Shown: positions 15,411 through 64,000 of the stretch, in pieces
How the letters are laid out: each line of letters opens with the position of its first letter
How positions within the stretch are numbered: the first letter of the stretch is position 1
From: Escherichia phage MRostami-2023b
Sequence record: OQ031492
DNA: 64,000 nucleotides
Direction: 5' to 3' (one strand)
The notes under the pieces: generated by a model
What the model was told of the DNA's origin: nothing
What the model saw: the letters and a program-made list of their open reading frames with translations, nothing else
Database searches by the model: none
Translations under genes and position numbers: made by a program

Positions 15411-18400
15411 CTAATGGCAACTGGCCCAGGAATTTCCCACGTCATATCCAGCAGTAAGCTGAACATTAAGATTGTAAAATTCTCCAGCCTTAGTAACAGC
15501 TAAAGCAGCAAGTTCACCTGCCCGACTATAAGCTGTAAACCATCCACCTTTGGGAGATTCATGAATGTTAGCCCAAATTTGCCCTGTCTCTTTTTCCTTA
15601 TTATGCTTCCATTCTTCGACTTTAGCAAGGCATTCTTTATCAATTTTCTTTTGTTCTTCAGGATCGTCTACTTTCTTCCAACCTAATGATTCAGGTGAAA
15701 ACCATTTGAATTCTACAAGGTTACGAGAAACTTCAAGCTGGGCTTCATCGTGGTATGCAATCATTTGTTGCACGAAGTCTTTATTCTTCCAGTCATCTTT
15801 AAAGAAGTCAACACTTAGCCCTTCTTCTTCGATCATGTCATCATAAATAACCATTGCACGTTTAGCACAGATAACCCCACCGCTTTGGAACAGAGAGTTA
15901 AGAATCGCGTGAGCAGAACGAGTAGGAACCTTACGACCGTCAATACCCAAAACATATTGTTTACCAGTCTTAACCCAAAAATCGTTTAAACGTTCTTTAA
16001 GACGCGCCAATGGGAATGCAGCTTCCCAGAAAGCATCAAACACCAATTGACCTGTAAACTTATCGCTACCAATTGTTTTAGCAACCTTGTCGGCTTGTGC
16101 ACCATAGGTAATACCATACTTAACAGATTTAGCAGGACTACGTTCAAATTTACGTCCAATAGTTTCAGTGATACGTTTTGCCATCATTGTGTGAACATCG
16201 TTAGGTTTCTCTAACAACAGAGCGTTACAATATTCGTGTGGCTCCGGCTCGTACCGCCAACAGTTNNNNNNNNNNNNNNNNNNNNNNNNNNNNNNNNNNN
16301 NNNNNNNNNNNNNNNNNNNNNNNNNNNNNNNNNNNNNNNNNNNNNNNNNNNNNNNNNNNNNNNNNNNNNNNNNNNNNNNNNNNNNNNNNNNNNNNNNNNN
16401 NNNNNNNNNNNNNNNNNNNNNNNNNNNNNNNNNNNNNNNNNNNNNNNNNNNNNNNNNNNNNNNNNNNNNNNNNNNNNNNNNNNNNNNNNNNNNNNNNNNN
16501 NNNNNNNNNNNNNNNNNNNNNNNNNNNNNNNNNNNNNNNNNNNNNNNNNNNNNNNNNNNNNNNNNNNNNNNNNNNNNNNNNNNNNNNNNNNNNNNNNNNN
16601 NNNNNNNNNNNNNNNNNNNNNNNNNNNNNNNNNNNNNNNNNNNNNNNNNNNNNNNNNNNNNNNNNNNNNNNNNNNNNNNNNNNNNNNNNNNNNNNNNNNN
16701 NNNNNNNNNNNNNNNNNNNNNNNNNNNNNNNNNNNNNNNNNNNNNNNNNNNNNNNNNNNNNNNNNNNNNNNNNNNNNNNNNNNNNNNNNNNNNNNNNNNN
16801 NNNNNNNNNNNNNNNNNNNNNNNNNNNNNNNNNNNNNNNNNNNNNNNNNNNNNNNNNNNNNNNNNNNNNNNNNNNNNNNNNNNNNNNNNNNNNNNNNNNN
16901 NNNNNNNNNNNNNNNNNNNNNNNNNNNNNNNNNNNNNNNNNNNNNNNNNNNNNNNNNNNNNNNNNNNNNNNNNNNNNNNNNNNNNNATCGCCAAACAGTA
17001 GTGTGATTCAATTTTTGCTTCCAAAGAGTCGAAGTCGTAGCCGATCTGGAAGTATTTAGGAACTTCTACACCAAACAAGTTACGCATCTCCCATCCAAAC
17101 AAAGATGTGACACGAGGAATATTAGCTACAGATCTATGCTTCATACGAGAGGTTGCAGCATCACATGTAGCGGCTGGGGTAGGAATACGCCCATCCGCCC
17201 TTACTGCGGCTAAGAAACCTTTGTCATATTCTTGATCTTCCTCATCTTCTTCCCAATCAGCACCACCGCCTAAAATAGAGTTTCTACGATGCTTATACGT
17301 TAAGTATTCTACAATCTGTGTAGCATAAGGGAATTTCTCACCTAAAGCTTGCAGGTTAGGACAGATTTCTTTTTCCTGACCTTTGGTAAAACATGGGTTA
17401 GTCAATACTTTAAGACCGCGACCCTTACCTTTTGCTATACGCTCTTGAATCTTCCTTTCCAAGGTTTCCGGTGTGCACTCCAGATGATCACAACGGTCCT
17501 GACAAAAATTAGAAGATAGAGTTTGCTCAACGTAAGCTCGAATACCTTTCTGAAGTTCTTCCTCGCTCTTTTTAATCTTGGTGCCAGATTTAAGAGTCAA
17601 GTCTTTATCTTTATATTCAGACGGTACCCAACCTAATCCTACAAGCCAGTTTTTAATATGGGTTGTATCGTTCAATGTTGCAGGGATGTTAGGATCACAC
17701 AGAGGCTCATCTGCTGCAACTGGCAGTTTCCACTCTTTCCCCAACATAACTAACCACCAATCGCCATCCCTCTCTTCCAAATGACCATCATGTTTCTTAG
17801 CAAAATTGATCATATGGTTAGTTGGCTCTAAGTTCTTTTTAATTTGCAACTTAGGTGGAATAAAAGCTTTAAGATAACCTTTTGTTGCTGGTTTAGGTGG
17901 CAAAATAGGCTCAACGAGTAAACGAAGACGCTCCATTTCTGCATCCAAAAAAGCAAGGTTCTCTTCTGCTTGTTTCATGTTAAAAGCAAACCCACGGTGT
18001 TCCTGGCGTGTAATAATGTCTGCTACACGTTGTTCAAGTTCAAATGGACCTTCCCATTTATCATAATCACCCCATTCTTCCATAAGGTAATTATATACGC
18101 TCGTATTGGCTTTGTTGTCATAGATACAGTAATAAAGCATATCCGCAGCAAAAGTCTTAAATCGATCTTCTTCTGGAATCTCTTTACGGAAATCTATTTT
18201 TACATCACCACCTGCTTTTCGAGAAAGTGCTGCCAAGCTATGTCCTGATTTGCCCTCAATCTTTCGATCTGGGTTTAACACTTTACTCAAAATCAAGGAG
18301 TCAATAAGTTTTACCTTATTTTTGCCCCACGTATTATATTTAACACTGTAATCTAATCCATAAAACAGTTTTGTAGCCAACCAGTCGTAGTTGATACCGT

Positions 18401-34228: not shown

Positions 34229-34288
34229 GCGGGGAACTATTCCCCGCTTCATGTGATATATCTTACTCTTTTTAAGAACTATGTCAAC
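34229..34288 (-). promoter_or_regulatory. Promoter plus leader hairpin of the same class as the 55.8-62.4 kb array, upstream of TerC
   Basis: Minus strand reads TTGACA-N17-TAAGAT-atatcac-…GCGGGGAAtagTTCCCCGC then RBS and ATG. Confidence 0.5.
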
Positions 34289-52282: not shown

Positions 52283-53191
52283 NNNNNNNNNNNNNNNNNN
52301 NNNNNNNNNNNNNNNNNNNNNNNNNNNNNNNNNNNNNNNNNNNNNNNNNNNNNNNNNNNNNNNNNNNNNNNNNNNNNNNNNNNNNNNNNNNNNNNNNNNN
52401 NNNNNNNNNNNNNNNNNNNNNNNNNNNNNNNNNNNNNNNNNNNNNNNNNNNNNNNNNNNNNNNNNNNNNNNNNNNNNNNNNNNNNNNNNNNNNNNNNNNN
52501 NNNNNNNNNNNNNNNNNNNNNNNNNNNNNNNNNNNNNNNNNNNNNNNNNNNNNNNNNNNNNNNNNNNNNNNNNNNNNNNNNNNNNNNNNNNNNNNNNNNN
52601 NNNNNNNNNNNNNNNNNNNNNNNNNNNNNNNNNNNNNNNNNNNNNNNNNNNNNNNNNNNNNNNNNNNNNNNNNNNNNNNNNNNNNNNNNNNNNNNNNNNN
52701 NNNNNNNNNNNNNNNNNNNNNNNNNNNNNNNNNNNNNNNNNNNNNNNNNNNNNNNNNNNNNNNNNNNNNNNNNNNNNNNNNNNNNNNNNNNNNNNNNNNN
52801 NNNNNNNNNNNNNNNNNNNNNNNNNNNNNNNNNNNNNNNNNNNNNNNNNNNNNNNNNNNNNNNNNNNNNNNNNNNNNNNNNNNNNNNNNNNNNNNNNNNN
52901 NNNNNNNNNNNNNNNNNNNNNNNNNNNNNNNNNNNNNNNNNNNNNNNNNNNNNNNNNNNNNNNNNNNNNNNNNNNNNNNNNNNNNNNNNNNNNNNNNNNN
53001 NNNNNNNNNNNNNNNNNNNNNNNNNNNNNNNNNNNNNNNNNNNNNNNNNNNNNNNNNNNNNNNNNNNNNNNNNNNNNNNNNNNNNNNNNNNNNNNNNNNN
53101 NNNNNNNNNNNNNNNNNNNNNNNNNNNNNNNNNNNNNNNNNNNNNNNNNNNNNNNNNNNNNNNNNNNNNNNNNNNNNNNNNNNNNNNNNNN
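52283..53191. other. Masked sequence (909 N)
   Basis: N run; content unknowable. Confidence 0.9.
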
Positions 53192-53896: not shown

Positions 53897-54085
53897 ATGG
53901 CACGTTTAGCAGATCATGAAATCTTTAAACCTATTCTGAACCACTATGATGAACTTAAAGCAGTGTTGGATTGTTATAGAGAGGATGAAGAACTCTTGGA
54001 GACAAACCTTAAAGTAGTTCTGATGAAAGCCTATCAGCAAGGGCAACGTGAAATTTTGGAGAGTATGAAAAATGCGAATAACTGA
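53897..54085 (+). CDS. Hypothetical small protein
   Basis: Start at MARLADHE after aaggaga RBS. Confidence 0.35.
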   Translation: MARLADHEIFKPILNHYDELKAVLDCYREDEELLETNLKVVLMKAYQQGQREILESMKNANN

Positions 54086-54614
54086 TGATTATGTATTCTT
54101 CTTTTCACATAAAGATGTTTTTAGTAATTGGTATATTGCACCCTTTACAGAAACCGAACCAGGTTACAATCAGACATTTAATTGTGTCGAACAATACATG
54201 ATGTGGCGTAAAGCTTTGCTTTTTAATGATCACAACACTGCACAGGCTATTCTGACTCATAGTTTGATACGGAAAGATGAGAAGATCCAAGCTTATTACA
54301 AACGTATGGGTAGGGCAGTGTCGGATTTTGATAACAATGTATGGGAAGAGAACCGTGAGCGTATTGTTATGCGAGGTTTATGCTTGAAATATGTACAGAA
54401 TCCAGATTTGTATGCAGACTTACACCTTTACCAATACAAAACGTTTGTTGAAGCAAGCCCCTACGATAAGGTTTACGGAATTGGAATGGGGATGTATGAA
54501 CCAGGGGTGCTAAACCCTGCCACCTGGAAAGGGCAGAATCTTTTAGGTAAATATCATAATAAACTGATCGAAATACTTTTCCCAGACAGAATACCGCAAA
54601 GACGATATTTGTGA
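54072..54614 (+). CDS. NADAR-domain protein (YbiA-like)
   Basis: FFFSHKDVFSNWY…EQYMMWRKALLF…DKVYGIGMG…GQNLLGKYHNKL matches NADAR/DUF1768 landmarks. Confidence 0.65.
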   Translation: MRITDDYVFFFSHKDVFSNWYIAPFTETEPGYNQTFNCVEQYMMWRKALLFNDHNTAQAILTHSLIRKDEKIQAYYKRMGRAVSDFDNNVWEENRERIVMRGLCLKYVQNPDLYADLHLYQYKTFVEASPYDKVYGIGMGMYEPGVLNPATWKGQNLLGKYHNKLIEILFPDRIPQRRYL

Positions 54615-54857
54615 TATTTTAACTTTTTTCATTTTTAGAACAAAGGTGTCACTTTGTAGCACAGAAATAAGGCTCCTACAGCACCGTAGAGAGCCTGTTA
54701 TTTTGTCCTATACAAACCCTTATCTTTTTCAGTTTGCATCACTAGGATTCGATCTAAGTGGGTTCCTGAAGGTCTACTAATAAGATTAAAGGTTATCTCA
54801 AATTCCCATTACCTATTATCTCAAAAATCCCTCAAATTATTTAAACTTTTTAAGAAT

Positions 54858-54895
54858 TTACAAAAGTGAAAGTTGAAAACCAAAATTTAAAGTTT
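54858..54895. repeat. A-rich direct repeat copy 1 in non-coding control region
   Basis: tacaaaagtgaaagttgaaaaccaaaatttaaagttta; near-copies at 54998-55035 and partial at 54937-54966. Confidence 0.5.
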
Positions 54896-54997
54896 AGGAA
54901 AATTATCTTAAAATGTTAGATACAAAACAAAACTCAAAAGTCAAGGAAAATTTTAAAAATTTTGCGCGCCCACAGTATTTAAAGTTTTTTTGCTTTT

Positions 54998-55035
54998 ACA
55001 AAAATGAAAGTACAAAAGCAAAATTTAAAGTTTAC
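54998..55035. repeat. A-rich direct repeat copy 2
   Basis: tacaaaaatgaaagtacaaaagcaaaatttaaagttta. Confidence 0.5.
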
Positions 55036-55039
55036 AAAA

Positions 55040-55175
55040 ATTTTTATGCAGGTGAGAATGAGAAGAGTTCTCATATGGAAATGCAAATGATAATGATTCG
55101 CATTTAAGTTTATAAATGAGATTGATTCTTATTTAATAAGGTAAATGATAACCATTCTCATTTAGAGAATGACGC
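55040..55175. promoter_or_regulatory. Cluster of palindromic operator-like sites
   Basis: gagaatgagaagagttctcat; aaatgc-aaatgataatgatt-cgcattt (Fur-box-like GATAATGAT core); cattctcatttagagaatg. Confidence 0.4.
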
Positions 55176-55420
55176 GCAGGGGCGGTGTTTGTCTCGCGCT
55201 CCCGTGTCCCCTCGCCATGTAATAAGAATAACAGATCCAGCCAGGAAAGCAAGCGATTATTTTATCTTTACATTTCTTTACAAATATATAGCGCCCAGCC
55301 TACCGGCGATCAACCTTCCAACCAGCGCCCTGGTATGTTAGCCCCGCCTTTACGCCGTGGGGTGGCGCTTCCTCTTCTGTATGTAAAACAGTATAAGCCC
55401 TATCCCTGGGCTTGTCAAGA

Positions 55421-55687
55421 TTATTTTTTGTTTTCTTGCCAGGTCAGGACACCTAGCCAAAAATGAATATCACCTTTTCCCCAATGTGGTATATTGCTTT
55501 CNNNNNNNNNACTGCAAGCCCATAGATAACCATTTGCGAACGTATCAAAATGATCTATATCCTCGACCTTATAATCTGATAGGTTGAGAACGGTTTCAAC
55601 CTTTAAGCCCGTTGCGCTTGCTACCTGGTGCACCGTGCCGCCTTGCCAGCCCAATGAGTGCATAAGGTGTAATGTAGTATTTGTCAT
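55421..55687 (-). CDS. Hypothetical protein divergent from the early-gene array (8 N inside)
   Basis: 88 aa ORF; possible TTGCTA-17-TATCAT promoter upstream. Confidence 0.3.
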   Translation of the reverse strand: MTNTTLHLMHSLGWQGGTVHQVASATGLKVETVLNLSDYKVEDIDHFDTFANGYLWACSXXXESNIPHWGKGDIHFWLGVLTWQENKK

Positions 55688-55796
55688 GGTATCGCCCTTT
55701 CTTTGATGTGCGCCCTGGTTGGCGCGGTAGAAAGATGATAGCCCTTTCTTTTATATATAGCAAGCAAAAAGAAAATAAAAAAGATTGAAAAAGTGA

Positions 55797-55854
55797 TTGA
55801 CGTTCGCCAGGTGGCGGCATAATATTTACCACGTAGGGCGGCAATGGTGCCGCT
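55797..55854 (+). promoter_or_regulatory. Sigma70-type promoter (TTGACG-17-TAATAT) plus conserved leader hairpin
   Basis: -10 followed by ttaccacGTAGGGCGGCAatggTGCCGC. Confidence 0.6.
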
Positions 55855-55874
55855 CATTATTTGGAGTTAAAATC

Positions 55875-56072
55875 ATGGCAACATTGCACATTGTGGCGAA
55901 AGCTGGACAAATAAACGTGGTAGTAAACGGTTTTACTGAGTTCAGTCATCCCCAGGATGATCATGAAACGGTTTTATCTTTCATTGATTCACTGTTAGAA
56001 ATGGGAGTAATTACAGAAGACCAGCACGCTACAAAATGCAAACGCGTTAATCAAATTGCAGGGATAGAATAA
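55875..56072 (+). CDS. Small early-type protein
   Basis: 65 aa from ATG after ggagtt RBS. Confidence 0.4.
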   Translation: MATLHIVAKAGQINVVVNGFTEFSHPQDDHETVLSFIDSLLEMGVITEDQHATKCKRVNQIAGIE

Positions 56073-56078
56073 AAAGTA

Positions 56079-56137
56079 TTGACAACAAACAACAACCTGA
56101 TAAGATGTATCACATAGGGCGGGAAGTGGTTTCCCGC
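56079..56137 (+). promoter_or_regulatory. Promoter (TTGACA-16-TAAGAT) plus leader hairpin
   Basis: gtatcacATAGGGCGGGAAgtggtTTCCCGC. Confidence 0.55.
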
Positions 56138-56162
56138 TCGTAACAGAAGAGAGATTATCATC

Positions 56163-56435
56163 ATGGCATCATATAGCGCAACAATGATCGTAGCTGGCAC
56201 CACTGGTAAACCTATGTGCGGTGGCGGATCTTTCGCAAATATCAACATTGACGGGCGTTTATCCCTGGACGCAGCGATCACCGTGGCGCGGGAAACATTT
56301 AAGAAAGAATGTAAATTCAATAAACAAGATTATCTCGGTTTTGCTATTGAAAAAACCGCGCGCTTTGTTGATTATAAAAGCCCGAAAATGGTTGACACTA
56401 CATTAAAAGCGCAAGATGTAGCGTTTTTGCTTTAA
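56163..56435 (+). CDS. Small early-type protein
   Basis: 90 aa, RBS agaagagag. Confidence 0.4.
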   Translation: MASYSATMIVAGTTGKPMCGGGSFANINIDGRLSLDAAITVARETFKKECKFNKQDYLGFAIEKTARFVDYKSPKMVDTTLKAQDVAFLL

Positions 56436-56438
56436 GGC

Positions 56439-56494
56439 TTGACATTAACGACTAATTTGTTAATATGTTACATAAAGCGGGAATAGTTCCCGCT
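56439..56494 (+). promoter_or_regulatory. Promoter (TTGACA-16-TAATAT) plus leader hairpin
   Basis: AGCGGGAAtagTTCCCGCT after -10. Confidence 0.55.
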
Positions 56495-56511
56495 ATTTGT
56501 AAGGTGGTAGA

Positions 56512-56769
56512 ATGTTTTACATCAAATTAAAAGGTCACGTGATCGCGTTCAAAGATAACGCTTTTTACAGATTAGCAAAATATGCGTTAATACATCCCCA
56601 CTATGTTTATATAAGGGGGCGTGATGAAATAAATATCTTTGATCAAACAACATGCGAGAACATCGAGATCCGCAAGGTTGGCGTACGTGATTATCGTACA
56701 TCTTTCTACCCTTGCAAGGATTCAGCAAGTCTTTTCAAAGTATGCCAATTGTTGAAAAAAGGTGGTTAA
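56512..56769 (+). CDS. Small early-type protein
   Basis: 85 aa, RBS aaggtgg. Confidence 0.4.
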   Translation: MFYIKLKGHVIAFKDNAFYRLAKYALIHPHYVYIRGRDEINIFDQTTCENIEIRKVGVRDYRTSFYPCKDSASLFKVCQLLKKGG

Positions 56770-56770
56770 T

Positions 56771-57328
56771 ATGGGCCGCGAATATGTGATCCAGTCTTGG
56801 GTAAAACATGAAGCAGATGATCCGCGCATCATTCCCGATCATCTTATCGATGAATCCACGGGATATAGCGGTGAGCAAATAGGTAACAGATTAGCACGTA
56901 GTAACGGCAACGTAAAAGCACGTTATGTGCGCCCTGGCTGGCTGGCAAATGGTAACGCTGATTTATCCAGTGCGGAAGATGCGAGCGACGGCGCGAAAGA
57001 TAATCCTTTGTACAAAGTTGATCCGGCTTTTCGTGTCCTGGATGAATACCCCAGCAAGATAGCGGCGCTCGATCAGGCCCTGGAAAGTAAGCGCATCACC
57101 TGGACCGCTTACAACATGGCAAAAAACGTACTTGATGGTAAATTGATTCAAGCTGAAAGAAAATTAGCCAAAATTGCAGCTATAGCCCAGGAGGAAGACG
57201 AGGAGACAACGGAAGAGGAAGAGTACGAAGAGATCCCGCCGTTGTTGTGTGTTGATGCTTTTCCTGATTATCAGCCGACAGAGGAAGAAAAAAGGATCGC
57301 ACTAGAAAACTTTGAAAATAGTCTTTGA
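56771..57328 (+). CDS. Acidic hypothetical protein
   Basis: 185 aa from MGREYVIQ; Glu-rich C-terminal tract. Confidence 0.4.
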   Translation: MGREYVIQSWVKHEADDPRIIPDHLIDESTGYSGEQIGNRLARSNGNVKARYVRPGWLANGNADLSSAEDASDGAKDNPLYKVDPAFRVLDEYPSKIAALDQALESKRITWTAYNMAKNVLDGKLIQAERKLAKIAAIAQEEDEETTEEEEYEEIPPLLCVDAFPDYQPTEEEKRIALENFENSL

Positions 57329-57382
57329 CATATCGCCGCCACTGGCATAATATTTACCACGTAGGGCGGCAATGGTGCCGCT
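57325..57382 (+). promoter_or_regulatory. Promoter (TTGACA-17-TAATAT) plus leader hairpin
   Basis: Near-identical to 55797-55854 element. Confidence 0.55.
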
Positions 57383-57410
57383 CATAGTAAAATTATGCAA
57401 GAGGTTTGCA

Positions 57411-57506
57411 ATGATTAATAAAGAAAATAGCTTGACGGTTGGAACGATTAACGCTATCATTTTCGCCGTTCCATTTTGGGTTGTAGTAGCGGCTATTATT
57501 TTCTAA
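57411..57506 (+). CDS. Tiny hydrophobic peptide (31 aa)
   Basis: MINKENSLTVGTINAIIFAVPFWVVVAAIIF; own promoter-hairpin. Confidence 0.3.
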   Translation: MINKENSLTVGTINAIIFAVPFWVVVAAIIF

Positions 57507-57515
57507 AAAATATTC

Positions 57516-57576
57516 TTGACAACGTTTTTTAATCTGATAAGATGTATCACATAGGGCGGCGGAATACTTCCCCGCC
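57516..57576 (+). promoter_or_regulatory. Promoter (TTGACA-16-TAAGAT) plus leader hairpin
   Basis: gtatcacATAGGGCGGCGGAAtacTTCCCCGCC. Confidence 0.55.
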
Positions 57577-57597
57577 AAAACAAAAAAGGGTAACACA

Positions 57598-57960
57598 ATG
57601 AGCAAGCAAATCAGTACTATCATGTTTAATCTGGTATCTTTCCGCGATGATATGAAAAATTTACCACGTGAAACGGTTGATATTCATGTTTCAGCTTATC
57701 GCGCCCTTATTGACATGTTACCGCTAAAACGTGATCAACATGCCGCTAATATGATGCTTAATGCTATGCTTAAAAAGATGATTCAAACTGATCTCACCCT
57801 GGCATATGAGTATCAAGGGCGCTTATATGCAACTTACAACAAAACGGTACCTGGTTTGGGAAGTACCGAAGAGTTGCACGGCTTAAACCTGGATCAAAAC
57901 ACTTGGGATAGTATGCGCCGCGTTATGGTATGGGCCGAAAGCGGTAAAATTTACGAATAA
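57598..57960 (+). CDS. Small early-type protein
   Basis: 120 aa. Confidence 0.4.
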   Translation: MSKQISTIMFNLVSFRDDMKNLPRETVDIHVSAYRALIDMLPLKRDQHAANMMLNAMLKKMIQTDLTLAYEYQGRLYATYNKTVPGLGSTEELHGLNLDQNTWDSMRRVMVWAESGKIYE

Positions 57961-57966
57961 AAACGG

Positions 57967-58023
57967 TTGACACTGTTTAAACTTCTGGTATAGTTTATCA
58001 CGTAGGGCGGCAATGGTGCCGCC
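57967..58023 (+). promoter_or_regulatory. Promoter (TTGACA-16-TATAGT) plus leader hairpin
   Basis: ttatcacGTAGGGCGGCAatggTGCCGCC. Confidence 0.55.
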
Positions 58024-58043
58024 AACAATAAAAGGTTAACACC

Positions 58044-58409
58044 ATGGCTATTAATATCAATGTTTCCGCTTATGCTACCCTGGCTAACACGGCTAAAATC
58101 GAATTATCCAGCATTGAGGCGGTGCATATTAGCGCCCGTCGCTGGTTTCAAAAGTCTTATGGTAATACTTATTTCTCTTTGATGGTTGACGTTGAGATCG
58201 GCGGTAAATTGATCGAAGTGGTTAACGTTCCGTTTCAATATGGCTATGGTGATCATTTTGATACCGTCGCCCTGGAAGAATTTAGCAAGGTTATCAACCT
58301 TGAGGGCAAGGAATTTTCACGCGGCGCGTATCTTTCCCGTTTTTGCCGTGACAATGGGATCACTGTATACAGTCATGCAAGCGATGTTAAACGTAAAAAA
58401 GATCTATAA
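58044..58409 (+). CDS. Small early-type protein
   Basis: 121 aa. Confidence 0.4.
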   Translation: MAININVSAYATLANTAKIELSSIEAVHISARRWFQKSYGNTYFSLMVDVEIGGKLIEVVNVPFQYGYGDHFDTVALEEFSKVINLEGKEFSRGAYLSRFCRDNGITVYSHASDVKRKKDL

Positions 58410-58415
58410 AAAGCA

Positions 58416-58475
58416 TTGACAGCACGAATAAAAAGCGTAAAATGTTTTATATCGAGAGCGGGAACACTTCCCGCC
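58416..58475 (+). promoter_or_regulatory. Promoter (TTGACA-16-TAAAAT) plus leader hairpin
   Basis: GCGGGAAcacTTCCCGC after -10. Confidence 0.5.
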
Positions 58476-58498
58476 TCACTGAAAAAGAGAGAAAAATC

Positions 58499-58738
58499 AT
58501 GGCTAAATCTAAAATGTACAACGGTCACAAAAACAAAACTCATTGGAATGTAAGCCTTTGGATTAATAACGATGAATCGTTATACCGGTTGGCCCAAGAT
58601 TTTATTAACGCTAATGCTAATCGTAATGATGCGGCGCGGGATATGATGCTTTTTCTGGAACAAACTGGACAAGATAAAACGCCAGACGGTTTCAAATATA
58701 GCACTACTGCGATCCGTGCCGCGATGGTTGGAATGTAA
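58499..58738 (+). CDS. Small early-type protein
   Basis: 79 aa from MAKSKMY. Confidence 0.4.
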   Translation: MAKSKMYNGHKNKTHWNVSLWINNDESLYRLAQDFINANANRNDAARDMMLFLEQTGQDKTPDGFKYSTTAIRAAMVGM

Positions 58739-58746
58739 TAAAAACA

Positions 58747-58805
58747 GTTGACAACGTTTAAAATTAGTGTAAGATGTATCACATAGGGCGGGAAGTGGTT
58801 TCCCG
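58747..58805 (+). promoter_or_regulatory. Promoter (TTGACA-16-TAAGAT) plus leader hairpin
   Basis: Near-identical to 56079-56137 element. Confidence 0.55.
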
Positions 58806-58828
58806 CCAAAACAGAGAGATTAAAGATT

Positions 58829-59056
58829 ATGGCTATCAATATTGTTCGCGTATCCGGCACCGTTGGCACTTCACAGGTTATTGCAGTCGTCACNNNNNNN
58901 NNNNNNNNNNNNNNNNNNNNNNCCTTGAATAAGTGGGCTATTGCTAATTTTGGGGAATATGCAAGCGTCGAGTACATCGAATCCTACCAGGTGCCAACCA
59001 TCAGCCTAACCGATCTCAACGTTGATCGCCTGTTATGCCTGGATGAATTAATCTGA
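58829..59056 (+). CDS. Small early-type protein (39 N inside)
   Basis: 75 codons incl. masked part. Confidence 0.3.
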   Translation: MAINIVRVSGTVGTSQVIAVVXXXXXXXXXXXLNKWAIANFGEYASVEYIESYQVPTISLTDLNVDRLLCLDELI

Positions 59057-59065
59057 AAAAGATTG

Positions 59066-59122
59066 TTGACACGGGAAAGAAAAAGAGTAAACTATATTAC
59101 GTAGGGCGGCAATGGTGCCGCT
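59066..59122 (+). promoter_or_regulatory. Promoter (TTGACA-16-TAAACT) plus leader hairpin
   Basis: atattacGTAGGGCGGCAatggTGCCGC. Confidence 0.5.
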
Positions 59123-59143
59123 CACAACAGAAGAGAGATTATC

Positions 59144-59339
59144 ATGNNNNNNNNNNNNNNNNNNNNNNNNNNNNNNNNNNNNNNNNNNNNNNNNNNNNNN
59201 NNNNNNNNNNNNNNNNNNNNNNNNNNNNNNNNNNNNNNNNNNNNNNNNNNNNNNNNNNNNNNNNNNNNNNNNNNNNNNNNNNNNNNNNNNNNNNNNNNNN
59301 NNNNNNNNNNNNNNNNNNNNNNNNNTTATAAAATAAAGC
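59144..59339 (+). CDS. Small ORF, start only; remainder masked
   Basis: ATG after agaagagagattatc RBS; 179 N follow. Confidence 0.2.
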
Positions 59340-59401
59340 TTGACAATAATTTGTTATCTAGTAAAGTGTACGACATAGGGCGGGGCAATAAGGCAACGCC
59401 C
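59340..59401 (+). promoter_or_regulatory. Promoter (TTGACA-16-TAAAGT) plus leader hairpin variant
   Basis: gtacgacATAGGGCGGGG…CGCCC. Confidence 0.45.
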
Positions 59402-59419
59402 ACTAATGAGGGTAAAATC

Positions 59420-59524
59420 ATGTTAGAGAAAATTTTCACGGTTGCAGTGGTTGGCCTGGCGTTATCGGTTGGAGTGGTTGCAACTATGGCTAACATGATC
59501 CTATCTTCCCACGGTATCGGCTAA
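59420..59524 (+). CDS. Tiny hydrophobic peptide (34 aa)
   Basis: MLEKIFTVAVVGLALSVGVVATMANMILSSHGIG. Confidence 0.3.
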   Translation: MLEKIFTVAVVGLALSVGVVATMANMILSSHGIG

Positions 59525-59534
59525 GGTGAAACAA

Positions 59535-59750
59535 ATGATCACGAATAAGACAGGTAAAACGGAATTTTTACGCGGCTTGCAAGTTGGTAAACCTGAGATC
59601 TGGCATTGTACTAAATCCGCACACAATGAAATGAAAGACTTTACCGCTAGTTTACAACGTGTTAAAATATCTATTACGCAGAAAAAAGCCTTGATAGTTG
59701 CAGAAAACGAGATCCCGCAAACCATTATTATTGTCGAGCGTACAGCATGA
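59535..59750 (+). CDS. Small early-type protein
   Basis: Start at ATG after aaggtg. Confidence 0.35.
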   Translation: MITNKTGKTEFLRGLQVGKPEIWHCTKSAHNEMKDFTASLQRVKISITQKKALIVAENEIPQTIIIVERTA

Positions 59751-60133
59751 AAACAGAAATCATTAACGAAATCATCAACGGCTATAAAGAAGCCTTTATT
59801 TTTGCTGAATCAGCAAGGGATCATGAAGGTAATTTTATTGATAACTTAGACGATTATGATTTTTCTCCTAGCGCGGACAAACGGATCGCCCAGGATGTAA
59901 CAGCCTTTATTAATGCTAATCTTGCCGCTATCTCTGAGGCAATGAGCGACGGCGCAACAGCCAACCAGATCGGCAATGATTTACATTTTACCCGTAACGG
60001 TCACGGCGTAGGCTTTTGGGATCGCCTTGAAATCTACACCACTAACACGGCGAACCGCCTAACCAATGCAGCTAAGTTTATGCCGAACGTGTCGGCTTAC
60101 ATTGGTGAAGATAATTTGATTTATATTGAATAA
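59747..60133 (+). CDS. Small early-type protein
   Basis: 128 aa, ATGA overlap. Confidence 0.4.
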   Translation: MKTEIINEIINGYKEAFIFAESARDHEGNFIDNLDDYDFSPSADKRIAQDVTAFINANLAAISEAMSDGATANQIGNDLHFTRNGHGVGFWDRLEIYTTNTANRLTNAAKFMPNVSAYIGEDNLIYIE

Positions 60134-60139
60134 AAAGTA

Positions 60140-60252
60140 TTGACACAGATCGCCAGTGTGATAATATTTACCACGTAGGGCGGCAATGGTGCCGCTGACA
60201 CAGATCGCCAGTGTGCTTATATTTAATGCGTAGGGCGGCAATGGTGCCGCCG
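60140..60252 (+). repeat. Tandem duplication of promoter plus leader hairpin unit (two ~56-bp copies)
   Basis: ttgacacagatcgccagtgtg…gtagggcggcaatggtgccgc followed by ctgacacagatcgccagtgtg…gtagggcggcaatggtgccgcc. Confidence 0.6.
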
Positions 60253-60269
60253 ATAATGAGGAAAGTAAA

Positions 60270-60569
60270 ATGGAAACTATCGCTATTGTTACCGTAGAAA
60301 AACTGGTTGTTGGTGATGTATTCGCGTTAATGGTGCCTAACAGCAGCAAGCTGGGCGCTTATGAAGTAATGGATCATAAAAATGAATCATTTGGCGACGG
60401 TTGCACAATGGCGGTAAAATCTTTAAAGGATGGAATCATCCGCCAGGCTAACTGGCACAAAGGGAATCAAGTCGGATTAATATCAGCTAATTTCTTGCCA
60501 GAAGAGCAAACGTTAGACCAACTATCAGGCGGTAAGACGTTAGCCGAACTACTGGAAACAGCGATCTAA
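60270..60569 (+). CDS. Small early-type protein
   Basis: 99 aa. Confidence 0.4.
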   Translation: METIAIVTVEKLVVGDVFALMVPNSSKLGAYEVMDHKNESFGDGCTMAVKSLKDGIIRQANWHKGNQVGLISANFLPEEQTLDQLSGGKTLAELLETAI

Positions 60570-60577
60570 TCAACAAA

Positions 60578-60593
60578 GGGGCGGCAACGCCCC
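60578..60593 (+). other. GNRA-loop hairpin in intergenic leader
   Basis: GGGGCG-gcaa-CGCCCC; no U-tract. Confidence 0.4.
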
Positions 60594-60613
60594 ACGTCAG
60601 AAAGGAAAAGATT

Positions 60614-60850
60614 ATGAGTATTGCAACAGTATTAAACGCCGTTAAAACCGCTGAATCATCCGGCTTACATGTTGAGCTTATAGATCAACCAGGTGGCGAT
60701 CTCCTTGTCCAGGTTTACCCGCCGAAAGTAGGGGATGATCATTATTGGTGCTATTCTGATACGTTCGAACAAGTAGACACGAAAGCGATCACGGCTTTTA
60801 TTTTAAAAGCTATTGAAGAAAATAACTTTCATTATAACATCAATCAATAA
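60614..60850 (+). CDS. Small early-type protein
   Basis: 78 aa. Confidence 0.4.
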   Translation: MSIATVLNAVKTAESSGLHVELIDQPGGDLLVQVYPPKVGDDHYWCYSDTFEQVDTKAITAFILKAIEENNFHYNINQ

Positions 60851-60859
60851 ACCATAAGC

Positions 60860-60875
60860 GGGGCGGTAACGCCCC
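60860..60875 (+). other. GNRA-loop hairpin in intergenic leader
   Basis: GGGGCG-gtaa-CGCCCC. Confidence 0.4.
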
Positions 60876-60905
60876 ATTAAACGCAATAGGAAGAGGCTAG
60901 AAAGC

Positions 60906-61190
60906 ATGAAAAAGATGATCGCAGTAGTTGCCCTGGTTGTTGGTATTAACGCGCCTGTACTGGCTAATGAGTTGCCAGAATCCATCACGTTAACCGATAT
61001 TAACGCAGTGAATCGGATCGGTGTTAATTATCGCCTATGCCTTGCCGCTAAAACTTTCCAGGACGGCACAACAGAGTACTACGGATTCGAGGGTATCCGC
61101 TGCGGTGAGCTTTCACGCGACCTTAAGGAAGATCCAGACCTTGAGGCCATACCGATGACCGTAAACGGTAAAGCCCACGTAAACCGCTAA
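60906..61190 (+). CDS. Small secreted protein with signal peptide
   Basis: MKKMIAVVALVVGINAPVLA…. Confidence 0.4.
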   Translation: MKKMIAVVALVVGINAPVLANELPESITLTDINAVNRIGVNYRLCLAAKTFQDGTTEYYGFEGIRCGELSRDLKEDPDLEAIPMTVNGKAHVNR

Positions 61191-61192
61191 CC

Positions 61193-61327
61193 ATGAGAAA
61201 GGTAATCATCACAATGGGGATCGTAGTAGCAACGCTGGCGCTTATCCCTTTCATGGTTGAACATGTGCTGATCAATGTTGTCCTGGTAGTCAGTGACCTA
61301 TTGGAAACGGTTGGCAACTGGTTTTAA
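61193..61327 (+). CDS. Small hydrophobic membrane peptide (not in ORF table)
   Basis: 44 aa MRKVIITMGIVVATLALIPFMVEHVLINVV…. Confidence 0.3.
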   Translation: MRKVIITMGIVVATLALIPFMVEHVLINVVLVVSDLLETVGNWF

Positions 61328-61335
61328 GATAATAA

Positions 61336-61362
61336 ATAGGGCTTGCAATAGTCCTATTTTTT
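61336..61362 (+). terminator. Rho-independent terminator
   Basis: atagggc…gtcctat stem followed by tttttt. Confidence 0.5.
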
Positions 61363-61501
61363 GTTATACTTATTGAACGGGCGGCACCTGGGAGCAGGGG
61401 AAGATAATCACCAGAAGACCCCGCTATATATTGATAACTAACGCCTATCAAACAACAAAACATCAAAGGAACAAACTATCAAATCTTTACAATTCTACCT
61501 A

Positions 61502-61551
61502 TTGACACCGGATCACGCTTACATTATTATTTATCACGTAGGGCGAGAATG
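61502..61551 (+). promoter_or_regulatory. Promoter (TTGACA-17-TATTAT) plus start of leader, truncated by N run
   Basis: ttatcacGTAGGGCGAG then masked. Confidence 0.45.
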
Positions 61552-61825
61552 NNNNNNNNNNNNNNNNNNNNNNNNNNNNNNNNNNNNNNNNNNNNNNNNN
61601 NNNNNNNNNNNNNNNNNNNNNNNNNNNNNNNNNNNNNNNNNNNNNNNNNNNNNNNNNNNNNNNNNNNNNNNNNNNNNNNNNNNNNNNNNNNNNNNNNNNN
61701 NNNNNNNNNNNNNNNNNNNNNNNNNNNNNNNNNNNNNNNNNNNNNNNNNNNNNNNNNNNNNNNNNNNNNNNNNNNNNNNNNNNNNNNNNNNNNNNNNNNN
61801 NNNNNNNNNNNNNNNNNNNNNNNNN
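61552..61825. other. Masked sequence (274 N) bounded by near-identical promoter-leader copies
   Basis: Both flanks read attattatttatcacgtagggcgag. Confidence 0.8.
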
Positions 61826-61874
61826 TCATGTTAAATTATTATTTATCACGTAGGGCGAGCAATACAGCAAGCCC
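61826..61874 (+). promoter_or_regulatory. Second copy of -10 plus leader element (-35 masked)
   Basis: tattat-ttatcac-gtagggcgagcaatacagcaagccc. Confidence 0.4.
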
Positions 61875-61891
61875 ACAAAGAGGAAAAGAAG

Positions 61892-62260
61892 ATGAGCAAA
61901 TCAGCAATTAAAGCAGTTGAAAAAGCGCAAGAAGTGATCGCAACGTCCACCACTGGCGCAAAGGTTAATCTCGTTGGTTATCTGACAGATGAAACTATCC
62001 GTAAAAATTGGCGTAATGCTGATTTACTGGCTTGCTTATTGATTAATAGTGTCGCTAATGCTTTCCAGTGTGAAACAGCCGAGAGCCTGGAGGAAAACTT
62101 GTTTGATAATATGGATCAAGCCATTGAAACCTATATACAATCAAACCTGGATAGCTGGAACAGTAAAACATGGCCCGACAATTTACGCGATACAACTGAT
62201 CAACTGATCCGCCTTGCTGTGATGGTTGAACGCGATAACGTTTACAACAGCACAAAGTAA
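61892..62260 (+). CDS. Small early-type protein
   Basis: 122 aa. Confidence 0.4.
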   Translation: MSKSAIKAVEKAQEVIATSTTGAKVNLVGYLTDETIRKNWRNADLLACLLINSVANAFQCETAESLEENLFDNMDQAIETYIQSNLDSWNSKTWPDNLRDTTDQLIRLAVMVERDNVYNSTK

Positions 62261-62269
62261 GATTATACA

Positions 62270-62290
62270 AGGGCGCACCAAGCGCCCTTT
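62270..62290 (+). terminator. Hairpin terminator (weak U-tract), same stem as 62828-62861
   Basis: agggcgc-accaa-gcgccct. Confidence 0.4.
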
Positions 62291-62325
62291 AACGTAAAGA
62301 AATGTAAATAATGCGCTATCCCCTA

Positions 62326-62354
62326 TTGACAGGGGATCGGCGTTATATTATATT
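62326..62354 (+). promoter_or_regulatory. Sigma70-type promoter (TTGACA-17-TATATT) with -35 embedded in palindrome
   Basis: atcccctaTTGACAggggat inverted repeat around -35. Confidence 0.45.
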
Positions 62355-62399
62355 TAACTCACTGGCAGCAAACAACGAAACGAAACAAAGGACAATACC

Positions 62400-62819
62400 A
62401 TGAACATTAAATCAAATAATCCAGCTTACTCCTTCGATAACGCTTTTTGTCACGGTAGCGCCGCCAAAGGCTTCGAAATCGATGGTAAATTGGTTATCGT
62501 GAACGTTGACGGGGAAGAGGTTGCAGTATATCCGGTAAACGATGTTAAAAGCCGTTTACAATGCCGCATGGATGTTACCGCGTATCAGCTTGATCCGATC
62601 CGTGTAGTTGCCCTGGTCCTGGAAGAAGAGATCAAAGCAATGCATCATAGTAACAAGTTTATTGGTGACGCGCAGGACAATATGAAAGTATGCCGCAGTA
62701 AAGTTAATGAAGCCTTGAAAGAATGCGGTTTTAAGGATCTGATGATTAAACGTGATGAAAAATTCCGCTTTCGTAATGACCTGGCGAACCGGATCTACTC
62801 AATATATGAAGCGTTATAA
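62400..62819 (+). CDS. Small early-type protein
   Basis: 139 aa. Confidence 0.4.
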   Translation: MNIKSNNPAYSFDNAFCHGSAAKGFEIDGKLVIVNVDGEEVAVYPVNDVKSRLQCRMDVTAYQLDPIRVVALVLEEEIKAMHHSNKFIGDAQDNMKVCRSKVNEALKECGFKDLMIKRDEKFRFRNDLANRIYSIYEAL

Positions 62820-62827
62820 TTGACAAC

Positions 62828-62861
62828 AAAAAAAGGGGCGCACCAAGCGCCCTTTCTTTTT
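62828..62861 (+). terminator. Rho-independent terminator
   Basis: aaaggggcgc-accaa-gcgccctttcttttt. Confidence 0.75.
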
Positions 62862-62879
62862 GCCCGAATAATGTTGATA

Positions 62880-63440
62880 GCTTTCGCCTATGAAAAACCG
62901 ACACAGAACAAAACTGAATAGATCGCGGTATCGAGCTAATCAACCATTAAACGAATAACCATACCTCCCAGGGTAACAGGTTGTTAGAGAGCCATTTAGA
63001 GCGGTTAAAATCGATCAACAACCAACAACAAACCATCAAAAACACCCTTTTACCTCCTTTCTAGTGCAATGATAACCATTATCATCTATCCATGTTTATC
63101 TATGCAATATAAGTGCATAACTATAATGTTGATAATAGTTCGCAACAACTAACTAACCAACAACCTAAAACAATAAGCAAACTAATCATAATCAAAGGAA
63201 TAATAGCAAGATGATTGATAACGACAAACAATCAAACCATGATGAATACTAAGCAAGATAACGATAACACGACAAAACAACCAACTAACGAACAATAACA
63301 AACGAAACCATTAAAATAATAACTATTGCCATAATAGTGACTGAATGAAATCATTACAAAACGAATCATTCCCAGGATCATCATTAGCACGCTATGCCGG
63401 ACACATAGCGAGCTAATAATAAGCCAACTACACCCCAACA
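62880..63440. other. ORF-free A/C-skewed low-complexity tract
   Basis: Plus strand almost devoid of G runs; repeated aacaa/ccaacaa/ataacga units; no credible ORF. Confidence 0.5.
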
Positions 63441-64000
63441 ATCATAACCATCGGTGACGGTTATTTCTTGTTATTGCGTAGCTTGCAATAATTGCAAGCG
63501 TAATTACGCTTACACTTATTGCGCTGGCTTATTATTAGCATTATATGTAATTACCAAGATCATAACATTAGCGCAATAACAATAATCATTGTGATAATTA
63601 CATAAGGAAATAATTAGCATGGCAATAATTATGGGGGCAATGGGAGGATGATTATCATCATTCCGATACATTGCACACTATGCACATAATAGAATAAAAG
63701 TCAATAATTTTGGGGGCGAAATGTTACCGCCACAGGCGGGAATGTTGAGCATCTTCTCTTAAACGTAAATAAAATCAGAAAATTCTTGATTTATTCTAGT
63801 TTTTATGTTAATAAACGTTTAAATAATAATCATTCTCATATAAATAATAGTCTGCTTGTCATGAGTGGGATTAGTTGACAGTGTTCCGTCATATGATGAA
63901 GTTGCCAAACCATTGATAAATAAGTGTTTGTGTGATTTATAATCAAGTGGCCCACCTTGTCGCTATGTTGGCATGAGCCTTGCATAAGTCATTGAATACG

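Follow-up and report, generated by a model that had tools for sequence, protein, structure and literature searches.

The window analysed here, a 64,000-nucleotide stretch of Escherichia phage MRostami-2023b (sequence record OQ031492), contains a 6.6-kb array of small genes, whose units (55797-61876, + strand) join a consensus-like sigma-70 promoter to a GC-rich hairpin predicted to form at the 5' end of the transcript. This feature is real, non-random and selected. Database comparison showed that positions 55700-62400 match 271 phage records, the best being Escherichia Phapecoctavirus (Stephanstirmvirinae, the phAPEC8 group) with 93-97% identity, and that the matches to relatives are broken into many separate pieces. 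The same region is longer in relatives: in phiWec179 it measures about 12 kb and holds 37 small genes, in ECO340P2 it measures about 10 kb, and all array genes of these two phages are annotated as 'hypothetical protein'. The window is masked by eleven runs of N (2701 bases; e.g. 16266-16986, 52283-53191, 59147-59325 and 61552-61825). Four of the runs lie within 55500-61825 and hide parts of three units; in the array the masks conceal one whole small gene, most of another unit together with its gene, and the -35 element of the last unit.

The array holds 13-14 units, and the order of elements within each is: an A-rich tract, TTGACA, a spacer of 16 or 17 nt, TAnnnT, a 7-nt discriminator, a purine (the predicted +1) and, usually, the conserved block TAGGGCGG. 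The 3' part comprises a GC hairpin of 7-10 bp and a purine-rich leader of about 19 nt (median 19 nt, often containing ACAACAGAAGAGAGA), which runs to the ATG. The +1 was predicted from the sequence as the purine 8 nt after the -10 element. Exact TTGACA-N16/17-TAnnnT matches on the + strand start at 56079, 56439, 57325, 57516, 57967, 58416, 58748, 59066, 59340, 60140, 61502 and 62326, a TTGACG variant lies on the same strand at 55797, and a further unit has its -10 element at 61837 with the -35 element concealed by an N mask. The consensus promoters proposed in the initial annotation are thus present, but their number is 13-15 and not about 16; the fixed 7-nt spacer (ttaccac, gtatcac, ttatcac or near variants, followed by a purine) and the conserved block described there are also found in the window. 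The stop codon of the preceding gene lies within the A-rich tract immediately 5' of the -35 element, AAAAA occurs within 12 nt 5' of this element in about 9 of 13 units (overlapping the upstream stop codon), and five units carry a TG extension before the -10 element.

All units except that at 62326 carry a hairpin of -12 to -16 kcal/mol, located 10-11 nt after the -10 element and 2-5 nt after the predicted +1. The leader hairpin reported in the initial annotation was therefore recovered behind 12 of the 13 array promoters, while its description of the loops as tetraloop-like did not hold, as these are AUGG, GUGGU, UAG, UAC, CAC and AAUAAG, i.e. not classical GNRA or UNCG loops. Among random 32-mers drawn from the window, only 28 of 3812 (0.7%) reach a folding free energy of -11 or lower with a stem beginning by +6, compared with 12 of 13 array promoters, and among the exact promoter matches outside the array such a hairpin follows 1 of 11 (34287, minus strand). 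When the whole predicted 5' untranslated region (UTR) was folded through the start codon, the 5' hairpin was dominant and most ribosome-binding regions were open (z-scores from -1.6 to -4.4). Exact TAGGGCGG occurs in 10 copies in the window, all on the + strand and within 55834-60238; copies of TAGGGCGA are present at 61539 and 61851, and the units at 56439 (AAAGCGGG) and 58416 (ATCGAGAGCGGG) keep the hairpin without the conserved block. An Rfam covariance-model search of both strands of 54000-64000 gave no match up to E = 1.

Unit 1 (55797-55855) has the -35 element TTGACG (55797-55802), the -10 element TAATAT (55820-55825), the discriminator ttaccac and a predicted +1 G at 55833; its hairpin, GGGCGGCA-AUGG-UGCCGCUC, spans 55836-55855, and the unit is predicted to drive an open reading frame (ORF) of 65 amino acids (aa) at 55875-56072. 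A small inverted repeat, CGCCAGGTGGCG, is placed between the -35 and -10 elements of this unit (55804-55817), which is the commonest stem-loop position in the promoter-early stem-loop cassettes (PeSLs) of phages RB49/phi1. In units 2, 3 and 5-10 TTGACA is followed by a 16-nt spacer, and in units 4 and 12 by one of 17 nt. Unit 2 (56079-56139; TAAGAT, gtatcac, predicted +1 A at 56114) carries the hairpin GGGCGGGAA-GUGGU-UUCCCGCUC (56117-56139) before the ORF at 56163-56435. Unit 3 (56439-56494; TAATAT, gttacat, predicted +1 A at 56474) has the hairpin AGCGGGAA-UAG-UUCCCGCU (56476-56494), no TAGGGCGG, and precedes two ORFs (56512-56769 and 56771-57328). It is followed by unit 4 (57325-57383; TAATAT, ttaccac, predicted +1 G at 57361; hairpin 57364-57383), whose ORF at 57411-57506 encodes a hydrophobic peptide of 31 aa, and by unit 5 (57516-57576; TAAGAT, gtatcac, predicted +1 A at 57551), in which the hairpin (57555-57576) has one bulged C and the ORF occupies 57598-57960.

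Unit 6 (57967-58026) shows TATAGT, ttatcac and a predicted +1 G at 58002, with a hairpin at 58006-58023 (58002-58026 including a terminal extension) and an ORF at 58044-58409. In unit 7 (58416-58477; TAAAAT, gttttat, predicted +1 A at 58451) the leader starts with AUCGAGAG, and the hairpin (58454-58477) precedes an ORF at 58499-58738. Both following ORFs are affected by N masks: that of unit 8 (58748-58807; TAAGAT, gtatcac, predicted +1 A at 58783; hairpin 58787-58807) is partly masked (58829-59056), and that of unit 9 (59066-59125; TAAACT, atattac, predicted +1 G at 59101; hairpin 59104-59123, or 59101-59125 with its extension) starts at 59144 and is masked as well. Unit 10 (59340-59401; TAAAGT, gtacgac, predicted +1 A at 59375) carries a hairpin with a 2x2 internal loop (59378-59401) and a 34-aa hydrophobic ORF (59420-59524), after which two promoter-less ORFs extend up to 60133.

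Unit 11 (60140-60251) contains a 55-bp tandem duplication (60141-60250; 2.0 copies, 90% identical) and precedes the ORF at 60270-60569. In the first copy the TTGACA promoter is intact and the hairpin lies at 60179-60196, whereas the second, starting at 60195/60196, has a degraded -35 element (CTGACA), an altered -10 element and a hairpin at 60234-60251; the counterpart of this unit in relatives is a single copy without duplication. Two promoter-less hairpins with GNRA loops follow, i.e. GGGGCG-GCAA-CGCCCC (60578-60593), 20 nt 5' of the ORF at 60614-60850, and GGGGCG-GUAA-CGCCCC (60860-60875), 30 nt 5' of the ORF for a signal-peptide protein (60906-61190); hairpins therefore exist between cistrons of the array too. 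The first site resembling an intrinsic terminator 3' of units 1-11 was identified at 61334-61359 (a stem followed by TTTTTTGTT), and since the promoters are co-directional, nested read-through transcripts are probable. Unit 12 (61502-61551; TATTAT, ttatcac, predicted +1 G at 61538, GTAGGGCGAGAATG) runs into the N mask at 61552-61825, and unit 13 (61826-61876), with its -35 element masked, has the -10 element TATTAT at 61837-61842, ttatcac, a predicted +1 G at 61850, a hairpin at 61853-61875 and an ORF at 61892-62260. The hairpin-less promoter at 62326-62354 (TTGACA, 17-nt spacer, TATATT) is preceded by a stem-loop (62269-62289) and followed by the ORF at 62400-62819; a strong terminator-like site lies downstream of the array at 62833-62855. 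The lone unit outside the array (34229-34287, minus strand; TTGACA, 16-nt spacer, TAAGAT, atatcac, predicted +1 A at 34252) carries the hairpin GCGGGGAA-UAG-UUCCCCGC (34247-34229) in the same orientation as its own gene, and has an orthologue with a different loop in phAPEC8 at 121969 (minus strand).

The 17 ORFs of the array and its flanks that were scanned all belong to PHROG families of unknown function, with the exception of one ATPase; the ORF of unit 7 matches Pfam DUF7249. The tiny hydrophobic peptides mentioned in the initial annotation are real: there are three of them, of 31, 34 and 44 aa, with a grand average of hydropathy (GRAVY) of about 1.5, and one further ORF encodes a protein with a signal peptide. 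The part in host takeover or counter-defence that the initial annotation suggested for the small ORFs found no support in these matches. A homologue of Srd was reported in the paper on phage rV5, and a Srd-like activator of RNase E was sought among the ORFs at 48.7-55.7 kb, which yielded only families of unknown function and one ATPase.

The leader units also occur in related phages, namely in phiWec179, ECO340P2, phAPEC8 and four IMG/VR genomes, which together with the window provided a comparison set of 91 units from 8 genomes, in which promoters, hairpins and gene starts (75 nt) were each clustered separately. Of 25 gene clusters present in at least two genomes, 10 were associated with more than one hairpin type and 8 with more than one promoter type, and in 4 the promoter and gene were the same while the hairpin differed; the gene at 56163 has five hairpin types among the genomes. 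The 49 distinct hairpins are all stable (from -10 to -17 kcal/mol), and the number of unpaired 5' bases before the stem, counted from the predicted +1, peaks at 3 (23 of 49) with a range of 0-6. These comparisons show that a stable hairpin is maintained at a fixed distance from the -10 element while its sequence is replaced. Such natural swaps amount to ready-made compensatory-mutation experiments, and they argue for selection on an mRNA structure located at the 5' end.

The pairing was also analysed by counting. A plain MAFFT alignment with RNAalifold gave no consensus structure, because stems of differing length were out of register, and it was replaced by an N-padded alignment registered on an invariant C-G pair. 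In the latter 85.8% of cells were paired, compared with 72.8% in shuffles (none of 500 reached the observed value) and 34-51% with the partner slid; both sides were changed in 6 of 10 pairs, and the covariation score was 0.338 vs 0.157. The proposal that the stems co-vary under selection on structure is in line with both sets of results, of which the orthologous swaps appear to be the stronger evidence. The sense fold is more stable than the antisense one in 34 of the 49 hairpins and the G-U pairs are located in the outer stem, which weakly supports a structure acting at the RNA level. The start context C(-1)/R(+1) is conserved among units. That the +1 base pairs with the one following the stem (G-C, A-U) was considered too and rejected, as no association was seen in 19 distinct leaders.

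The breaks between the window and its relatives point to where the array is rearranged. The BLAST blocks shared with three relatives stop at 55826-55862, 56437, 57479-57495, 58738-58748 and 59375/6, all in or beside units, and in two of these breaks homology begins exactly at TAGGGCGG. Whole cassettes are present or absent along a backbone of conserved order, one promoter precedes three or four different genes across genomes, and the phAPEC8 hairpin at record position 145900 is a chimera, in which the 5' arm of one type and the 3' arm of another are joined at the AATGGT loop. These patterns show that promoter, hairpin and gene modules are re-assorted at the conserved blocks. In the complete phAPEC8 genome (147.7 kb) a 5' hairpin follows 15 of 53 TTGACA-N16-18-TAnnnT sites, and 13 of these 15 belong to the array, which is split by the record ends into a part from 143.7 kb onward and a part at 1-4.5 kb. 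The motif TAGRGCGR occurs there in 13 copies, all on the + strand of one 8.6-kb array region, with none on the other strand.

The layout extends beyond the phAPEC8 group. The ORF at 62400-62819, just downstream of the array, is 92% identical to a protein of rV5 (Vequintavirinae), whose homologous array shows, for 5 of its roughly 12 consensus promoters, a GC hairpin at +4/+5 (e.g. AAAGGCGGGAAUGUUUCCCGCC), without the TAGGGCGG block; conversely, an rV5-like contig (L008) has the block without the hairpin. The succession of promoter and hairpin is thus older than the conserved block. A 63-aa ORFan of the rV5 array (rV5 gp200; L023, 56-247) has copies with 87-90% protein identity in RB49-like phages of the T4 family, including Krischvirus PHB13 (L024, 2501-2692), and weaker relatives (37-43% identity) adjoining the DNA ligase of T7-like phages. 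In these copies DNA homology ends at the ORF borders, and this looks like a recent exchange between phage families. It would appear that ORFans cross family borders and land behind the local type of promoter and stem-loop. As a separate observation, an IMG/VR scan with the pattern TTGACA-N16/17-TAnnnT-N7-RTAGGGCGG matched, besides Phapecoctavirus contigs, a few unrelated viral contigs (L003/L004/L013, L005, L006 and L011; GC content 40-69%, one of 279 kb); a stable hairpin follows GGGCGG in 4 of 6 independent loci, and the number of matches is within the roughly estimated chance range.

The explanation that we favour, giving it about an even chance, is that the units are early-expression cassettes for the host sigma-70 machinery, in which the 5'-terminal hairpin stabilises and insulates short mRNAs and the repeated blocks serve as recombination sites. 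Unmodified host RNA polymerase with sigma-70 would bind the A-rich, UP-like tract, the consensus -35 element and the good -10 element, and would start transcription, presumably early in infection, at the conserved purine 8 nt after the latter. The predicted transcript consists of about 3 unpaired bases (RUA), the GC hairpin of 7-10 bp, an unstructured purine-rich leader of about 19 nt with the ribosome-binding site, and the ORF. The comparison of relatives indicates that the hairpin is kept by selection with a freely exchangeable sequence, and it may act as a 5'-terminal stabiliser that denies RppH and RNase E a single-stranded 5' end, giving each newly acquired small ORF an identical, insulated 5' UTR. 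The discriminator with RTAGGGCGG, the AAUGGU loop and the ACAGAAGAGAGA leader would provide patches of homology; recombination or gene conversion at these patches is the probable means by which cassettes, promoters and hairpins are added, deleted and swapped, as the observed breakpoints and chimeras suggest.

A 5'-terminal stabiliser is the best fit because the stem lies 2-4 nt from the predicted end, its sequence is irrelevant and an open ribosome-binding region follows. Emory et al. (1992) are reported to have found mRNA to be stabilised by a stem-loop lying at most 2-4 nt from the 5' end, the sequence of the stem-loop being largely immaterial. Several points weigh against this explanation. 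Three unpaired 5' bases may still admit RppH; for the Bacillus enzyme a passage of the review PMC3997798 gives at least 2 unpaired bases as needed and at least 3 as preferred. RNase E, once loaded, readily passes an orthogonal stem-loop, so hairpins internal to read-through transcripts would protect little. The pair-count statistics lean towards structure, since the register is each sequence's own fold and the sequences are related, and in one hairpin type a C-A mismatch corresponds to a G-U pair on the opposite strand. Moreover, the T at +2 and the A at +3 show at least 90% conservation despite being unpaired, A18/A19/T20 at the edge of the loop hardly vary, and these bases, GGGCGG and the loop-proximal AAU are conserved more than pairing needs, which implies either a sequence-specific reader or homogenisation by gene conversion. 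Finally, the literature found on this phage group contained no description of a leader hairpin and no data on 5' ends, half-lives or timing of expression.

The excess conservation is what a recognition site for a phage protein, in line with the alternative put forward in the initial annotation, would predict, and the block (cac-RTAGGGCGG with the AAUGGU loop) could serve at +1 as a DNA operator for the joint shut-off of the early promoters, or as a 5' RNA tag for timed stabilisation, translation control or destruction. Sharing a tag among co-regulated genes is a common phage design, exemplified by RegB and RegA of T4, and the confinement of the block to one strand of the array (all 13 TAGRGCGR copies in phAPEC8) agrees with it. 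We nevertheless consider such a site unlikely, though deserving attention, since the units without the block (56439 and 58416, and GGGGCG-ACAAG-CGCCCC in relatives) keep their hairpin, stems and loops differ between orthologous units, block and hairpin occur separately in L008 and rV5, respectively, and no candidate binding protein was found among the neighbouring ORFs, which are all of unknown function. A more far-reaching and distinctly speculative version is that the shared 5' end (RUAGGGCGG, the GC stem and the AAUGGU-type loop) is a self-mark, read by a phage RNA-binding protein or nuclease or by a retargeted host factor, that separates immediate-early phage mRNAs from those of the host. 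It would allow selective protection or translation during host mRNA destruction, a later coordinated shut-off, and the docking of captured ORFans into the regulon.

We find it improbable that the nascent hairpin and the purine-rich initial transcript act on RNA polymerase, helping it to escape from strong promoters, e.g. by sigma release or less backtracking or promoter-proximal pausing. By the time the whole stem has formed, the polymerase is already about 35 nt downstream and has escaped, equally strong promoters elsewhere in the genome lack hairpins, and the two intercistronic hairpins have no promoter. On the other hand, near-consensus promoters with UP-like tracts, such as those of the array, are of a kind limited by escape, the distance from the -10 element to the stem is fixed, the start context is conserved, and unit 7 starts with AUCGAGAG, which we take to be the first 8 nt of the T7 A1 transcript.

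The dense packing of co-directional units with no other terminator before 61334 could suggest that the hairpins are attenuators or terminators which limit read-through from upstream cassettes, as proposed for PeSL stem-loops, one of which (from RB49/phi1) lowered lacZ expression about as much as rrnB T1. This is quite improbable here, because each hairpin is located 3' of its own start site, inside its own transcript, which it would stop equally, and because the U-tract is missing: a T-rich tail follows 1 of 13 hairpins (unit 1, ATTATTTGGA), the other tails are A-rich, and there is no T-run on the opposite strand either.

It is very doubtful, too, that the inverted repeats act as DNA, in the form of a cruciform or single-stranded hairpin where, as at integron attC sites, a dedicated recombinase or nuclease would make the crossovers by which ORFan cassettes move. 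The gain and loss of cassettes, the promoter and hairpin swaps and the loop-joined chimera would fit this idea, which was also raised by the authors of the PeSL studies, who detected mini-circles, and phAPEC8 has a 'putative site-specific recombinase' and an endonuclease annotated nearby. However, general homologous recombination on patches of 10-20 nt gives the same patterns, the orientation of the hairpin always follows transcription (the lone minus-strand unit included), G-U pairs favour the sense RNA, and no fixed crossover point was observed. The reading of the 20-mer repeated upstream of genes as a promoter used by an RNA polymerase or sigma factor specific to the phage, as in the phAPEC8 annotation, is largely refuted in spite of its loose likeness to T7-type promoters (CAC-ATAGGG), because the full phAPEC8 annotation contains no RNA polymerase gene, the T7 likeness is not above that of shuffles, the block is always 8 nt behind a full sigma-70 promoter, at and after the predicted start site, and the 3' half of the 20-mer is the variable hairpin.

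The array is bracketed by two non-coding stretches with features of their own. Sequences resembling a Fur box (AATGATAATCATTATC, up to 3 mismatches) number 13 in the window, compared with 1.6 expected, and 9 of the 13 are in these two stretches (55086-55162; 63068-63086, 63644-63662 and 63822-63837); three copies at 29-nt spacing occupy 55085-55169, and the site at 63068 has one mismatch. From their sequence, they may serve iron-responsive control or the titration of host Fur. Upstream, a near-consensus promoter on the minus strand (55418-55390; TTGACA, 17-nt spacer, TATACT), conserved in phAPEC8 at 143297 (minus strand), faces about 230 nt of GC-rich sequence that holds few ORFs and ends at a terminator-like hairpin (55173-55151) overlapping the Fur-like boxes. 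This sequence is a candidate for a non-coding RNA on the minus strand (55383-55150), against which speak a fold z-score of only -0.7 and the lack of an Rfam match. Downstream, 62860-63700 and onward to 64000 is an AT-rich stretch with about 0.9 kb devoid of any convincing ORF and with many short direct and inverted repeats; it corresponds to the 'non-coding' box of rV5 (2.6 kb) and to 5.5-7.0 kb in phAPEC8. The ECO340P2 record begins at about window position 63773, which could place a genome end, a packaging site or an origin near the stretch at 62860-64000.

In large lytic phages, small genes with no known function are kept in arrays; they are expressed first and turn over fast. Their expression on acquisition and their shuffling are known no further than in outline, and for T4-like phages alone. 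The phAPEC8-like phages and, more loosely, the rV5-like ones form a second, unrelated group of coliphage myoviruses, which shows the same logic in a different design, consisting of promoter, transcribed hairpin and ribosome-binding site. If the favoured explanation is true, a correction would be due for the 'PHIRE promoter' annotation found in many records, the units would amount to strong, compact and insulated modules for expression in E. coli, and the comparison of units between genomes would give a simple map of cassette exchange in therapeutic coliphages.

The array repeat was noticed as early as 2012 and interpreted as a phage promoter. In the RefSeq record of phAPEC8 (NC_020079) the 20-mer GTAGGGCGGCAATGGTGCCG or its variants are labelled 'putative promoter determined with PHIRE' at eleven sites, all in the array, and the upstream half of several units is labelled 'putative host dependent promoter determined with MEME'; where both are annotated, the two features abut or overlap by two bases. 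That annotation thus treats the 20-mer as a phage promoter separate from the host dependent one, and leaves the hairpin, the leader and a role in recombination unstated. The rV5 paper lists sigma-70 promoters and terminators only.

Similarity to the T7 class III promoters and the phi10 leader lies in the placing of a conserved promoter directly before a GGG-rich start and a 5' stem-loop, which in T7 stabilises the mRNA. T7 differs in using a single-subunit phage polymerase, none being annotated in phAPEC8, and the sequence likeness (16 of 23 positions by eye) was rejected, as local alignment did not exceed shuffles (p from 0.01 to 0.7 per unit). The 5' stabilisers of ompA and papA, work on which, together with RNase E, is listed in the review PMC3997798, resemble the array leaders in having a stable hairpin within about 2-4 nt of the 5' end (here the predicted end), an unimportant stem sequence, which fits the hairpin swaps, and an unstructured ribosome-binding region downstream. 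They differ in being single cellular genes with measured half-lives, whereas the array leaders form a family with over 13 copies in each phage genome, linked to a promoter module and known from sequence.

The closest parallel is with the PeSLs, strong sigma-70 promoters joined to GC-rich stem-loops among the ORFans of T4-like phages (RB49/phi1, PST and nt-1), for which modular shuffling and mini-circles were described (Arbiol et al. 2010, PMC2839356; Comeau et al. 2014, PMC4122927). Their stem-loops occupy five positions, mostly between the -35 and -10 elements or over the -10 element, and one that was tested was terminator-like. Array units and PeSLs share a sigma-70-consensus promoter with an AT-rich tract overlapping the upstream stop codon, an adjacent GC-rich stem-loop in a short intergenic motif followed by a Shine-Dalgarno sequence and ATG, and many copies in a hyperplastic region of small ORFans (6.6 kb here, 10-12 kb in relatives). 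In both, indels, replacements and chimeras of close relatives map to the motifs, including a crossover in the loop. The array phages, however, belong to Stephanstirmvirinae and Vequintavirinae and not to Straboviridae, and the array has an additional conserved RTAGGGCGG block. Its stem-loop is fixed, beginning at about +4 in the transcribed leader, while that of PeSLs varies in position (the Krischvirus locus shows the PeSL type, with GGGAGTAgTAAGATACTCCC over the -10 element), and PeSL stem-loops are described as terminators, whereas the array hairpins lack a U-tract and, as terminators, could not spare their own transcript. Since the hairpin is transcribed, has none of the U-tract expected of a terminator and occurs in a lineage that is not T4-like, we regard the array cassettes as analogous to PeSLs and not as members of that family.

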